This document shows, in pieces, positions 2,326-44,779 of a stretch of 64,000 nt of DNA; the stretch's first letter is position 1, and each line of letters starts with the position of its first letter. The stretch is from contig NC_043009.1 in the NCBI RefSeq assembly GCF_006345805.1, positions 55,304,001 through 55,368,000 of the forward strand, in the 5' to 3' direction. Source of the DNA: Octopus sinensis (taxonomy: Eukaryota). Both the position numbers and the translations under genes were made by a program. The notes under the pieces are model-generated. The model did not search any database. It was not told the DNA's origin and worked only from the letters and a program-made list of their open reading frames with translations.

Positions 2326-4584
2326 AATACAGTTCTAGTCTGATTTGGCATGGATTTCCTAATGCCAACCACTTTGAGAGTGTAATGGGTTCTTTTATGT
2401 GCCACCGGCATGAGTGTCATTTGCATGATACCAGTATCTTCCATGACTGCAATTTTACTCAGTTTGACAGGTCTTCTTCTCAAGCATGACATAATGCTAA
2501 ACGTCTCTGTTATTGCCTCTGTAAGGTAATCTGTGAGCTGGGTGCACTATTGGCCCTTAATCAATTCCTCTTTCCACTCCCATTTTTTGGTTCCCCCTTT
2601 TTTTTTTTTTTGCATTATTCGTTACAGCTGGTACTTTTCAACGGAATGGCTGTATGTACCTGATGGAAAAGAGCACTGGGTAGTTATGAAACATTTCAAT
2701 GTTACATAATAGGCACCTGGTGCCTTTATCGAAATAGCTATAGTTCTCAACCTCTTCTTCCATTCTTTTTAGTTACAGACTTCATTATTGCATAATTAGC
2801 AGCAGTTGTTGCTTTTCATCAGGTATTGTATAGCATATGTCAGTGGAATTTTCCACCTAAATTTGATATGGGAGAAAGAGTATTTGATGCATCGGTCAAT
2901 AAACTTTATTGATCAACTATCAAGTCATTTGTATTTTCTATACAAGCCTTATTTATGGAAGAGATGAACCAACTGCTTTTACCAAGACCACTTGACTGGT
3001 CCTGCTACATTATTTGTGTGTGTGTTTGTGTGTGTGTGTGTGTGCGTGTGTGTCTGTGAGTGTGTATGTGTGGATATAGATATAATATATACATAAATAT
3101 AGATATACATATATACATATTCGTATATGTATATACATGTGTGTGTGTGTGTGTGTGTGTGTGTGTGTGTGTGTGTGTGTGTGTGTGTGGTGTGTGTGTG
3201 CGTGCGCGTGTGTAAATATATATATAGAGAGAGACAGAGACATATATACACAGAAATGTATAGAGTTACAGATGCACATTGCAATGAAAACTCCAATTAA
3301 AAAGTGAAACCGGTTCGTAATTATGTATTTCAGAATATTTAATTATGTATTTTTGTAATTTTGTGCTCTGCAGTGTTTAATAATGTATTTTGAAAGTAAT
3401 TGAATGAAAAATGTTCTTTGAAATATGTCATCTTAAAATAATTTGGTAGCTATAATGTATTTTGGACATGATATAATAGTTTGGAATATGTGACAATGTA
3501 TTTTGAAATAATTTGATTGCAGTAATCTGTTTTTGAACACATATTATATTTTGAATTGATTTGATTGTAATAATGAATTTATTTTGGAATTTATTTACTG
3601 CAATGTAAAAAGTACATTTTCTCCTTTTTATTAATATTTTTCCGCACTTTCCAATTTGTGTGGATTATTTTTAATATGTTATCTGTGTGTGTGTGTGTGT
3701 GTGTGTGTGTGTGTGTGTGTGTGTGTGTGTGTGTATATGTGTATATATATACTCTTTTTACTCTTTTAATTGTTTCAGTCATTTGACTGCGGCCATGCTG
3801 GAGCACCACCTTTAATCGAGCAACTCAACCCCGGGACTTATTATTTTGTAAGCCCAGTACTTGTTCTATCGGTCTCTTTTGCCGAACCACTAAGTGACGG
3901 GGACATAAACACACCAGCATCGGTTGTCAAGCAATGCTAGGGAACAAACACAGACACACAAACACACACACGCATATATATATATATACATATATACAAC
4001 GGGCTTCTTTCAGTTTCCGTCTACCAAATCCACTCACAAGGCTTTGGTCGGCCCGAGGCTATAGTAGTAGACACTTACCCAAGGTGCCACGCAGTGGGAC
4101 TGAACCTGGAACCATGTGGTTGGTAGACAAGCTACTTACCACACAGTCACTCCAATATATATATATATTCTTTTGAATGATATCAGTGAAATCTTCGAAA
4201 CATGTGTCAAAAGTAAAAGATTTGATTTATACCTGTGCTAAACTCCATTTATTTATTTATATACATATATATTTATATATATACACACACACTTGCACAT
4301 ACACATGCATATATATATATATATATATATATATATATATAATTAATAATAAAATATTAGGGAATAAATCCAAACTTACAGGGAAAAATCAGATATAGGA
4401 TTAAATCCAATTTTATAGTATAAATATATTATATCATATTATATTATATTAAACTAGAGATAAACCCACTATTAGGCAAATCAAACAATGAAAAACATAA
4501 GCCAATACATAAAATTAATATAACTTATATTATTTTAAATATATATCAAAAGTATTAAAAGTTTAATAAAAGATAAAGAGTAAA

Positions 4585-4677
4585 ACACTACGATCGTTTC
4601 ATGGCTGTACAATTCGAATAACAATAATTTAAATTCAATTAATAATTCGAGTTATGGTTACAGTCAATCTTCAGGTT
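4585..4677 (-). ncRNA. Hammerhead motif (intact core, weak stem I)
   Basis: CTGAAGA-TTGACTGTA...TACAGCCAT-GAAA-C(GATC)G-TA. Confidence 0.65.
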
Positions 4678-5739
4678 AATTGAAATATCTAAAAAATAAA
4701 CAGAAATATTTAAACAATATTATTAATTGAATTTAAATTTTTGATATATATTTAAAATAATATAAATTATATTAATTTTATGTATTGATTTGCCTAATAG
4801 TGGTTTTATCTCTAATTTGATATAATATATATATATATATAAGAATGCATGCTCTCACTGCATCTCCTCATTTTTGTTTGCCTTGCTCCTTCTCATAGAG
4901 ATAAAAACACAAGTATACGTACATGCATACATGCACACACACACACACACACACACACACACATGCACACACACACACACACACGCACACACAAACACAC
5001 ACGCATGCAAGTATAAGCACACACATATTGCTGAAGTCATAAGAATTTCATAAACTTTCAAGAGGATGTCAGCTGACCCTTTTTTTGGGGAATATCTCGA
5101 AGCACACACATAAAGCTATAGATAACAGCATGCAATGTAAATATTTGCAGCTTTCTATGCGTACTTTAAGATACCTCCAAAATATATATATGCGCATGTA
5201 GACATATGTATATATGTACATATATATATATATATATATATATATATATATATATATATATATACATATATATATATATATATATATATATATATATATA
5301 TAATATATATATATATATATATATATATATATATATATATATATATATATATACTCACACATTCTTACATACTCACACACACACACACACACACATGTAT
5401 TTATTGGTTTCATTATTAGATTGTGACTTTCCTGGGGCATTGCCTTCACAAGTGCAATCAAGTATATCAGACCCCTCCTACCTCCAGTACTTGACTAGAA
5501 GTAGATACTGAGGACCGAGGCAAAGTCAACCAAGGCAATGTACATACACACACACACACACACACACACACACACACACACACACACACACACACACACA
5601 ACACACACACACACACATACACATATTTGCATATATTCATTAAGGAAGCAGATTTTTTGCTCTGCAAAATTAAACATAGTAATAATGAGTAAGACAATAA
5701 TGACAATAAAGGAAAAAAAACTTATGAATATTTCTCCAA

Positions 5740-6312
5740 TTATAATGATGATAATAATAATAATAATAATAATAATGATGATAATAATAATAATAATAAT
5801 AATAATGATGATAATAATAATAATAATAATAATAATGATGATGATAATAATAATAATAATAATAATAATAATAATAATAATGATATAATAATAATAATAA
5901 TAATAATAATAATAGTAATAATGATAATAATAATAATAATAATAATAATATAATAATAATAATAATAAGTAATAATAATACTAATAATAATAATAATAAT
6001 AATAATAATAATAGTAATAATAATAATAGTAATAGTAATAATGATATAATAATAATAATATAATAATAATAATAATAATAATAATAATGAATAATAATAA
6101 TAATAATAATATAATAATGATAATATAATAATAATAATAATAATAATGATGATGATAATAATAATAATAATAATAATAATAATGATAATAATAATAATAA
6201 TAATAATAATGATAATAATAATAATTAATAATAATAATAATAATGATAATAATAATAATAATAATAATAGTAATAATAATAATAGTAATAATAATAATAA
6301 TAATAGTAATAA
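5740..6312. repeat. Long (TAA)n microsatellite with ATG/GTA interruptions
   Basis: Direct reading; source of the poly-I/L/N ORFs. Confidence 0.95.
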
Positions 6313-7520
6313 TACAAAGATCACCAACATATTTTTTACTGTAGACTATTTGTAATTTTGTGTATAAGTGTTGCTTTCCCTGTAATTAGGGTTAAAAGGG
6401 ATGGAGGAGGAGGAGGAGGAGGAGAAGGCAACATTGATGGTTGTAACTGCAAAAGCAGTGACATCAATGATGATGATGATGATGATGATGAAGAAGAAGA
6501 AGAAGAAGAGGAAGAAGAAGAAGAAGAAGAAGAAGAAGAAGAAGAAGAAGAAGAAGAAGAAGAAGAAGAAGAAGAAGAAGAAGAAGAAGAAGAAGAAGAA
6601 GCCTTCTAAGCAACCCCTCCCACATGCACACACATGTGGAGGGGAAGGGCATTCTCCCCTATCATTCATTGCACCCCAAAATCTTCTTTCCAGTTTGTTT
6701 CAATAATTTGTTTCCAAACCATTAAACACCCCCCCACTTTCTCCTCTTCTTCACCCCTGCCGCAAACCCACCCACCCCCGCCCACACCAAACACCCCCAC
6801 ACCCCAAATGTCATGCTCTCCTTCCTCCACCCACCTCTAATGGTATTGCTTTTGTTTCAGCATGGTTTTCTTCAGCTGACATTTCCCCTTCACGCAACCA
6901 CCACTCACACTCACACTCCTTTTCCTACCACCACCACCACCACCACCATCATCAAGAATAACAACTTTTGTAATGGCTGCCATCTCACCCACTCTGACTT
7001 CCTATCTTCTGTAGAATGTTGAAAAGATGTCAAATAAACCGACTCCCTCCACACATACACATTTCTTCCTCCTTGTATCTTAACCTCGGGTCTTCATCAG
7101 ACAAAGTTGTTTGAAATGGGTGCAGACATAGCTGTGTGGTTAAGGAGTTCCTTTGCGACCATGCAGTTCTGAGTTCAATCTCACTCAGCTACATCTTGAA
7201 TAAAGTGTCTCTCCTACCAACTGGAAATTTCTTTGTAACCATTTGGAAGCAACAGAATAGCTTGATGTGATATCTTCATATGATAACCTTTGCTTTGAAT
7301 AAAAATTGGAACTGGTAACTTCCGTTATTCCTTACCATGGATTATCATTAAATTCACATTTAAATTGCTGATGGACCTTACCTATAACTGATTCGATCAT
7401 AAAACTACATGATACATACCCATCTTATTTTGATCCTTCTCTCATTTTTGACAAACTGGAATATACTTGTATCCTCAAACGGGGATATTCCTTCATTTTT
7501 ACATCTCTCTCCCTTCTCCC

Positions 7521-43596: not shown

Positions 43597-43631
43597 GTTT
43601 CCGACGAAGAGCTCCGCTCAAAACGTTAAAC
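43597..43631 (+). ncRNA. Degenerate minimal hammerhead motif
   Basis: GTTT-CCGACGA-A-GAGC(tcc)GCTC-AAAA-CG-TT-AAAC; G12 lost, consistent with CpG decay. Confidence 0.55.
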
Positions 43632-43864
43632 CCTCCTTCTTTCCTGAGCATCCAATAATACTATATTTGTTCCATGTCCTCGCGTTGTTGTGTTTTTTTT
43701 GTGCTTTCTTGTTTGGATTAACTTTATATATATATATATATATATATATATACATACATACATACTCAATCCAAACAAGAACAAGCAAGAAAAATCAACA
43801 ACATGAGGACATGGAACAAGTACTGTGTTATTGGATACTCAGGAAAGCAAAGAAAAGAAAGAGG

Positions 43865-43899
43865 ATTTCACATTTCAAGCAGAGCTCTTCATCAGAAAT
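43865..43899 (-). ncRNA. Degenerate minimal hammerhead motif (inverted partner of 43597-43631)
   Basis: ATTT-CTGATGA-A-GAGC(tct)GCTT-GAAA-TG-TG-AAAT. Confidence 0.55.
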
Positions 43900-44779
43900 A
43901 TAGAAAAAGTCCAGAAATATAGAAAAAGAAAATCGCCAACGATACACACACGGTCACATATTGAAGTGACTCAGTGAAAGGGAATGAGTGAAGAAAAAGT
44001 TCCTTCTAAGACAGGAAAGTGCAAGAGAAGGAAGTATGTGTGTATGTGTGGGTATGTCCATGAGCACAGGCCTGTGTGTGTGTGTGTGTAATGACTGAAC
44101 ATGTATGTGCGTGTGTGTGTGTGTGGTTGTGGCTGTTTATATATGTGTGTGGTTGGACTAGTGTAGCTTAAGGTCATAGGAAGAATTTATAGTAAGAATT
44201 TTATGTAGGAGTGGCTGTCTGTTGTGTGTCTCCCTACACATGTGCGTAGGAGAATGGTCAGCAGAAAGGTGTTTAACTGGTAGTTTGAAGTATGTGTCTG
44301 TGCGTATATGTATATGCTGTGTGTGTGTGTGTTTTGTGTGCAGCGTATGTCTGTGTATGCGTGAGGTTTGTGGGGGTTGTGTCTGTGAAGTAAATGTAAG
44401 TTACTCTGTGTGTGTGTGTGTACAAGTGTGTGGTTATACAGACACACATATGTATATATTATACATTTACATACATATATATATATATTATATATATATA
44501 TATACAAATGTGTATATATAAACCATAACAGGTGGTATGACAGGTGAATATATTTTTAATCACATGACATCTTTAGGGTTACAACCATTTCACAACCTTC
44601 TTCGTGTAGTATTAATTTGTGTGTGAAAGGAATTATGCTTACATGTCTGCATTAACATGTGTGCTTCACATTATACAATTGTGTATTCACAAATCAATGG
44701 AAATAAAGAAAGCTATCTCATGAGATCACTAATACATCATGGTTACACCAGAGATCAACATGGTATGTATATATGTATG

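Follow-up and report, generated by a model that had tools for sequence, protein, structure and literature searches.

Minimal hammerhead motifs at the probable 3' ends of Penelope-like elements and likely derivatives in Octopus sinensis, including a family with a natural G3–C8 core

What are the hammerhead-like motifs that recur within one short piece of an octopus chromosome, and to which elements do they belong? The piece considered here (the window) comprises 64,000 nucleotides of Octopus sinensis DNA (NCBI RefSeq assembly GCF_006345805.1, contig NC_043009.1, positions 55,304,001 to 55,368,000 of the forward strand); it has 36.7% G+C and is rich in microsatellites, in a genome of 2.72 Gb. 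An initial annotation, made from the sequence alone, described about 12 type I hammerhead ribozymes (HHRs) in some 40 kb and regarded them as a dispersed population of non-autonomous mini-retroelements. The reading that we favour, with a probability of roughly 80%, is that these are minimal type I HHRs, predicted to cut themselves, which sit in the 3' pseudo-long terminal repeat (pLTR) ends of at least five coding families of Penelope-like elements (PLEs) and of four short, likely non-coding derivatives, the copies in the window most likely being 5'-truncated insertions. A population of hammerheads at PLE ends is to be expected because these ribozymes are known to litter animal genomes; as a phenomenon it is already in print (PMC4209133; bioRxiv 10.64898/2026.07.22.740005).

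A type I layout is present at 12 of the 13 positions that had been named. The thirteenth, at 35785, is rejected because it has U9, lacks U16.1 and is one of only two candidates including itself, the other genomic copy (75% identical) being devoid of the motif. The features concerned are listed below, with the position at which each core starts.

4340–4727, minus strand: 3' end of a family A copy; HHR at 4583–4680, core CUGAAGA starting at 4674, long stem II, loop CGAUCG; a short inverted piece lies beside it at 4732–4841.
7302–7689, plus strand: pLTR fragment of family B; HHR at 7518–7600, canonical core starting at 7524.
19489–19825, minus strand: 3' end of family C with an inverted segment; HHR at 19603–19649, C3–G8 core starting at 19643.
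23696–24099: head-to-head pair of family D; HHRs at 23736–23799 (minus, core at 23793) and 24014–24077 (plus, core at 24020).
24115–24630, minus strand: broken PLE remnant, with GIY-YIG sequence at 24316–24630, abutting the D pair.
31416–31746, plus strand: family E; HHR at 31471–31515, canonical core starting at 31477, 6-bp stem I.
34321–34839, plus strand: family F, between (TA)n runs; HHR at 34504–34620, C4 core CCGAAGA starting at 34510, long stem II, loop CAGCUG.
35741–35830, plus strand: the rejected motif at 35785, with U9, no U16.1 and two copies only.
40739–41342, minus strand: 3' end of family H; HHR at 40908–40957, swapped G3–C8 core GUGAACA starting at 40951.
41388–41732: head-to-head pair of family I between (TA)n runs; HHR-like motifs at 41495–41536 (minus, core at 41530) and 41636–41677 (plus, core at 41642).
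43526–43965: tail-to-tail pair of family J around (TA)n; minimal HHRs at 43595–43633 (plus, C4, core at 43601) and 43863–43901 (minus, core at 43895).

Genome searches place the 12 supported motifs in nine repeat families (A–F and H–J), in keeping with the view that several families are involved, with 221 to 3353 first-look candidates each. The counts, which are lower bounds (40 candidates were scored per family), are at least 3353 for J (43601), 1939 for F (34510), 1692 for H (40951), 1510 for A (4674), 1334 for E (31477), 1126 for I (41642), 693 for D (23793), 271 for C (19643) and 221 for B (7524). Core letters were counted over the best 24–29 other copies of each family, a choice by similarity that favours the letters of the window copies. 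Families A to E have canonical cores, with scattered decay in the older ones. G3 and C8 each occur in all 24 copies of H; U3, A8 and C13 each occur in all 24 copies of I; and C4 is found in 26 of 29 copies of J and 23 of 24 of F. At the family level, A–E fit the type I core, F and J do so with C4 and H with G3–C8, and family I departs from it at position 13. The odd cores (G3–C8; U3–A8 with C13; C4) are fixed family traits and not decay, which bears out the suggestion of natural core variants.

Beyond the core, stem I is weak in families I and A, and stem II is very long in A, B and F (52–86 nt between the core halves). Self-complementarity of the 15.1–16.1 span of helix III is seen in A, B, F, H (AAUAUU), I (ACCGGU) and J (ACGU); the span comes close to a palindrome in D and E and is partly palindromic in C. 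The GATC loop at 19643 is not typical of its family, the loop being GAAC in 16 of 24 copies of C. Five copies in the window (one B, one C, one H and both J) are individually damaged: stem II has lost 9 nt at 7524 (B) and is weakened at 19643 (C), 40951 (H) has A15.1>G plus a change in stem I, 43601 (J) has G12>A, and 43895 (J) has changes at position 17 and in stem III, this last copy (43863–43901) being decayed and 75% identical.

The link to coding elements is seen in longer copies. In families B, C, D, H and J, which account for seven of the 12 motifs, such copies run upstream into sequence on the same strand that codes for reverse transcriptase (RT) and/or a GIY-YIG endonuclease; the window copies are therefore most likely the 5'-truncated ends of coding PLEs, and the Penelope association first proposed is upheld for these five families, with no such link for A, E, F and I. 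For family H, a walk upstream through several internal microsatellites leads to the end of a GIY-YIG endonuclease. Conversely, among 30 loci picked by the H protein, GUGAACA lies 0.9–1.4 kb downstream on the same strand in 25, a decayed core is present in one and four gave no call. The open reading frame (ORF) of locus L413 runs to 1042 codons and includes the RT motif RYVDD, a cysteine linker (CX2-5CxxC) and a GIY-YIG domain (YIGET); the HHR lies about 0.9 kb behind it. The stretch of about 1 kb that separates the two in this family is rich in microsatellites. Many copies of J likewise extend upstream. The order frameshifted RT–endonuclease ORF, CA-rich untranslated region and J HHR is seen in L433, one of four stretches fetched; L436 contains the tail and HHR, and L434 and L435 stop short of the HHR. 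The CX2-5CxxC linker precedes GIY-YIG in both the H and the J-related ORFs. Family B flanks a PLE ORF in L379, and in L159/L431 a PLE endonuclease is followed, after about 330 bp, by family C. In family D the endonuclease ends 230–310 bp upstream, on the same strand, in L083, L086, L087 and L095, and the plus-strand copy in the window is preceded by a short C-terminal piece of the D-linked endonuclease.

The GIY-YIG remnant that had been noticed beside the D pair (24316–24630, minus) is genuine, but it matches PLE copy L323 and not the D loci; it was discarded as the parent of D and probably belongs to another PLE family. A further family, K, is represented in the window by a 3' tail (43436–43487, plus), and in its full copies (L267, with a frame of 727 codons) a canonical HHR precedes the ORF by about 190 nt. 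It should be noted that Pfam left the H and K proteins unrecognised and matched the others only weakly (RVT_1 or GIY-YIG), so that PLE identity rests on motifs and tblastn.

The flanks of the elements differ between families. The first (TA)4 lies at the element 3' end in 28 of 30 J, 25 of 25 I and 25 of 25 F loci (in F with three end classes), in 9 of 25 H and 8 of 25 E loci, and rarely in B and C, against a background of 8–16% for a 50–150-nt window. The general association with (TA)n that had been claimed thus holds strongly for the 3' ends of J, I and F, partly for H, E and D, and weakly for B and C, where it is rare; in family A the first (TA)4 is internal, yet the 3' end flanks (TA)n in most loci. 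Inverted partners range from 3 of 30 J to 13 of 25 I loci, with none in 25 B loci, and most copies are solo. Same-strand neighbours within 1.5 kb are found in 0–3 of 25–30 loci per family. Families H, I and A have two classes of 3' end, 45–110 nt apart (45 versus 43 copies in H), which correspond to the PLE ‘tail’ of PMC11167929. Short head-to-tail runs of family J, of about 230 bp and joined by (TA)n, were seen at L009 and L027/L028; these would permit dimer cutting.

These observations can be accommodated in a scheme drawn largely from work on other PLEs. The RT/GIY-YIG protein of the element would nick (TA)n and start target-primed reverse transcription (PMC8557442, PMC11167929). Reverse transcription would begin at either of two internal sites of the RNA, hence the two 3' ends, and would usually stop early, so that a solo ribozyme-bearing end is left, often with an inverted copy. 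Selection would maintain the ribozymes through the RNA of full-length parents, in which two pLTR copies, or two RNAs, might pair through the palindromic stem III and be cut as dimers or with the help of the element protein. Cutting, if any, would take place in transcripts of full-length or tandem elements, the solo genomic copies being mostly dead passengers. In H the G3–C8 pair is taken to be derived, a compensatory swap under which partial activity would persist; in family I, with U3–A8, C13 and weak pairing in stem I, the motif is more likely vestigial and would have spread all the same.

Family H brings the 3–8 pair, known from crystal structures and mutants, into the question. In this recently spread family GUGAACA is present in 91 of 103 copies (all loci, an independent pick), and across subfamilies that differ in loop II stems I and II are perfect and stem III is palindromic. 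In contigs of four runs from three organisms no G>C change reaches 2% anywhere in the H stretch, and hence none does at C8; one C>G place was found in one run, outside the rows listed. When 2.0 Mb of fetched DNA was scanned for cores with positions 3, 4, 8 and 13 left free, 15 clusters with several copies emerged, namely 13 with C3–G8, one with G3–C8 and one with U3–A8, none being unpaired at 3–8; the singletons comprised 21 C–G, 5 U–A, 21 unpaired and 3 otherwise irregular cores. The layout of H is shared by the hammerhead of C, by that of a sister family, S, and by a U3–A8 singleton. An H/C/S alignment of eight hand-picked HHRs (3–8 pair G–C in four, C–G in three and U–A in one) has 95.8% of its cells paired and two-sided changes in 5 of 12 pairs. 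Its covariation score was reached by none of 500 shuffles, which, the rows being related, is not a probability; covariation had been proposed as a check on the motifs, and it is found here. In a protein tree (quick IQ-TREE) H is sister to C and S with a Shimodaira–Hasegawa-like approximate likelihood ratio test (SH-aLRT) value of 100, although C is only 15% filled and the homologues are unnamed; the H and S proteins are 54% identical.

With H placed as sister to two C3–G8 families with a homologous HHR, the 3–8 pair appears to covary naturally, and because C3–G8 is the general state, G3–C8 most likely arose on the H branch. The occurrence of G3–C8 in a transposon with an intact ORF, beside C3–G8 sisters and a U3–A8 relative, is natural covariation evidence for the pair. 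A practical consequence is that descriptors fixed on CUGANGA miss whole families.

Some further observations concern these families. Family S (L419:5861–5910 (+), L420–L424, L313, L324, L199) is itself a PLE family, with open frames of up to 1044 codons and C3–G8. U3–A8 hammerheads with intact GAAA also occur at L034:689(+), L385:4016(–), L429:1602(–), L152:2054(+) and L163:240(–), in at least four different repeats. In the window H copy, 40973–40992 (minus) has a branch-point-like ACUAAC, a pyrimidine tract and a CAG ending 21 nt before the core, an arrangement that recalls D. virilis Penelope, where an intron ends ahead of helix I. In the run contigs, loose ends and joints of inversions cluster at 40968–40974. 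Two other candidates were discarded: a short non-autonomous H element whose 5' end would be fixed, since what looks like that end is a microsatellite inside the element, and a separate G3–C8 family at L313, which is an older, broken H copy.

A number of results weigh against the PLE-end reading, or against active ribozymes within it. Folding energy is clear for an HHR only in an intact H copy (z –2.8), seven window segments folding at z –1.5 to +1.5. In none of the nine families do 5' ends accumulate where cutting is predicted, in a small sample biased toward copies that contain the HHR. The link of J to an ORF comes from one locus, and those of B and C from one each. Upstream stretches of A (44), F (31) and I (41) showed no PLE ORF ending nearby on the same strand (rows that include repeat fetches of one place, with flanks mostly of 1.5 kb), and of two ORF matches for family E neither is an endonuclease end at a fixed distance. 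As blastn finds no similarity between the tails of H and S or of H and C, even at the HHR, the homology of the H ribozyme rests on the alignment, the layout and the protein tree. In family S, 13 of 15 copies have C in place of A9, and family I has C13, so that uncompensated changes also spread. Finally, an Anolis PLE inserts in vitro with no need of HHR cutting (PMC11167929) and eight of nine Xenopus retrozyme dimers failed to cut (bioRxiv 10.64898/2026.07.22.740005), and hence conservation of the HHR need not mean activity in each family.

How far, then, may the variant cores be taken as working ribozymes? A bolder extension, which we regard as less likely than not, is that one octopus PLE lineage has sampled all three working pairs at 3–8 (C–G, U–A and G–C) plus family-wide C4, C9 and C13; that the G3–C8 ribozyme of H is active, assisted by protein and present in thousands of copies; and that some 10^5 PLE HHRs amount to a natural mutational scan, one that would show the PLE protein to relax the core rules derived from free ribozymes. 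The opposite possibility, unlikely but a serious contender, is that the variant cores (G3–C8; U3–A8 with C13; C4) are inactive founder mutations amplified passively, the ribozyme being dispensable and the pairing at 3–8 mere luck. The in vitro insertion just mentioned would allow this, as would family I, with its uncompensated C13, weak stem I and lack of an HHR fold, and the C9 of family S, which persists despite intact ORFs. Luck, however, would have to account for the absence of any cluster unpaired at 3–8 amongst the 15 with several copies, and for the perfect stems, palindromic stem III and conserved GUGAACA of H across its subfamilies. Furthermore, the double swap C3G/G8C partly restores cutting in laboratory mutants, as described for a protein-assisted PLE HHR (PMC11167929) and in a review (PMC8495972). 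Together with their cognate proteins, H, C, S, I, J and E would provide a matched set bearing on cutting in vivo and on the need for protein, or the dispensability, of PLE HHRs.

The four families without an ORF link (A, E, F and I; five of the 12 motifs) are likely to be non-coding PLE derivatives. One 5' start is common to four independent copies of family A, lying about 1.27 kb upstream in three and closer in one deleted copy. Copies of family I are short, with a common start 55–90 nt upstream of the core. Family E is a non-coding, circularly permuted unit of about 360 bp: its end motif is found at –113 to –141 in 14 of 25 loci, at +218 to +224 in 12 of 25 and at both in seven. Partial tandems occur in L059 and L065, with up to about 1.4 units per locus, and end-to-start joints were found in contigs of X15 (large, probably genomic) and of two runs guessed to be RNA. 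Two tentative links were rejected: that of family I to an ORF in L228, where a (TA)n run lies between and 29 other loci of the ORF are without I, and that of family A to endonucleases in L036 and L037, which have the wrong orientation and are two different proteins.

It is from these families that another explanation draws its evidence, namely that the set consists mainly of non-autonomous retrozymes, whose short tandem units cut themselves into monomers, form circles and rely on PLE proteins acting in trans for their retrotransposition. The size of E falls within the 170–400 nt of metazoan retrozymes (PMC7229834, Cervera & de la Pena 2020), its permuted units, partial tandems and end-to-start joints have the expected form, and A and I have common 5' starts and no ORF. 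Such a description may apply to E and perhaps also to families A, F and I. For the set as a whole it is improbable: five of the nine families continue into PLE ORFs, same-strand neighbours are rare, none of 25 E loci has two complete tandem HHR units as judged by motif spacing, and the head-to-tail joint of E exists in genomic DNA and is thus no proof of RNA circles. As a general claim, the non-autonomous mini-retroelements first envisaged are thus not supported: seven of the 12 motifs most likely lie in ends of coding PLEs, only E being a retrozyme-like unit.

It may also be asked whether the motifs exceed chance and whether this window is special. A strict descriptor (CUGANGA..GAAA..UH, with stems I and II of at least 3 bp each) gave four matches in the window versus a mean of 0.03 in 30 local dinucleotide shuffles, so that on the comparison with shuffled sequence that had been called for the motifs stand out; a relaxed descriptor that permits one core mismatch gave 10 matches versus 0.8 per shuffle (10 shuffles). 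That the motifs are chance matches in AT-rich, microsatellite-rich DNA holds for 35785 and is compatible with the 0.8 relaxed matches per shuffle, but it is already refuted for the other 12, which all belong to multi-copy families with conserved core columns, and, given the strict count and the covarying stems of the H/C/S alignment, has next to no probability left. Of 213 matches given by Rfam cmscan for the window, the best 150 include no hammerhead family, and those at the top are microsatellite or hairpin artefacts. A background sample of 400 kb (40 segments of 10 kb at round coordinates on chromosomes 1–30) contained seven descriptor matches of the C–G/G–C type scoring at least 17, versus one match, of the A–U type, in one shuffle. 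A library of 132 HHR contexts, in which families A, F and I are left out and the window's own copies are included, matched eight places in the window and 35 rows (32 distinct places) in the background, or about 80 HHR-bearing ends per Mb. The eight matches compare with 5.1 expected (Poisson P about 0.15); the window is no special HHR cluster, its density being near the genome background. Rough extrapolation suggests HHR-bearing ends of the order of 10^5 genome-wide.

Comparison with published systems places most of the present features within a known arrangement. Cervera & de la Pena (2014; PMC4209133) describe massive numbers of solo minimal HHRs, opposite-strand pairs 100–700 bp apart, palindromic helix III and a U3–A8 variant, with low activity for dimers of minimal HHRs. 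The octopus motifs share with these the type I layout, the extra nucleotide between 9 and 10.1, the tiny palindromic helix III, the location in the 3' pLTR, truncated copies that number thousands and are mostly solo, pairs on opposite strands and U3–A8 and, in H, a splice-acceptor-like site just before helix I. They differ in the very long stems II of A, B and F, and the representative HHRs in Fig. S3 of that paper (56 according to the legend) include no G3–C8, no C4 and no cephalopod. Craig et al. (2021; PMC8557442) report (TA)n targets, inverted 5'-truncated copies and tails of 30–40 bp for PLEs. The order of RT followed by C-terminal GIY-YIG, the cysteine linker in H and the J-related ORF, the (TA)n bias, the inverted 5'-truncated copies and the optional tail all recall endonuclease-bearing (EN+) PLEs of the Neptune/Nematis type; the likeness of H and J to these rests on linker and layout, the RT tree holding unnamed homologues, and the 3' stretches of about 1–2 kb filled with microsatellites in H and J, as well as the G3–C8 core, set them apart.

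Retrozymes have been presented as non-autonomous PLE derivatives (Li et al. 2026; bioRxiv 10.64898/2026.07.22.740005). Non-LTR (non-long terminal repeat) retrozymes resemble the present families in being short non-coding units with type I HHRs from PLE pLTRs, and E fits their size and circular permutation; the 25 E loci, however, contain neither complete tandem dimers nor arrays, five of the present families have coding parents, and B, C, D, H and J fall outside the class. Natural core variants, including a U4C from a viroid, are on record (Perreault et al. 2011; PMC3088659). The G3–C8 core agrees with the C3G/G8C mutant in that a Watson–Crick 3–8 pair tolerates swaps, but in PMC11167929 (Frangieh et al. 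2024) and PMC8495972 the swap is a laboratory construct, whereas here it is the natural type of a family with intact ORFs. A natural G3–C8 was not found in the literature searched (which did not cover subscription papers) or among the representatives of Fig. S3 in PMC4209133. PLE ends with minimal HHRs are a known arrangement, but the G3–C8 natural core seems to be unreported in print. An octopus repeat annotation (PMC13282606) lists 31 recently active Penelope-like families, and its main text contains neither ‘ribozyme’ nor ‘hammerhead’.

The window holds a few other features. The stretch 42420–42620 (minus), which the initial annotation did not mention, is the terminal part of a further repeat associated with PLEs; it has CUGAAGA together with an irregular second half of the core and may be a decayed or non-standard hammerhead. 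Related sequence was found twice near the PLE ORF in L436. A fragment of a long interspersed nuclear element (LINE) reverse transcriptase (30084–31426, minus; RVT_1, E 3e-25) abuts the family E copy; from its motifs we take it to be RTE-like. A short interstitial telomere-type (TTAGGG)n array occupies 22837–22910, and an exon-sized match to the cysteinyl-tRNA synthetase domain (61132–61533, minus; PF01406, E 3e-20) marks a host gene.

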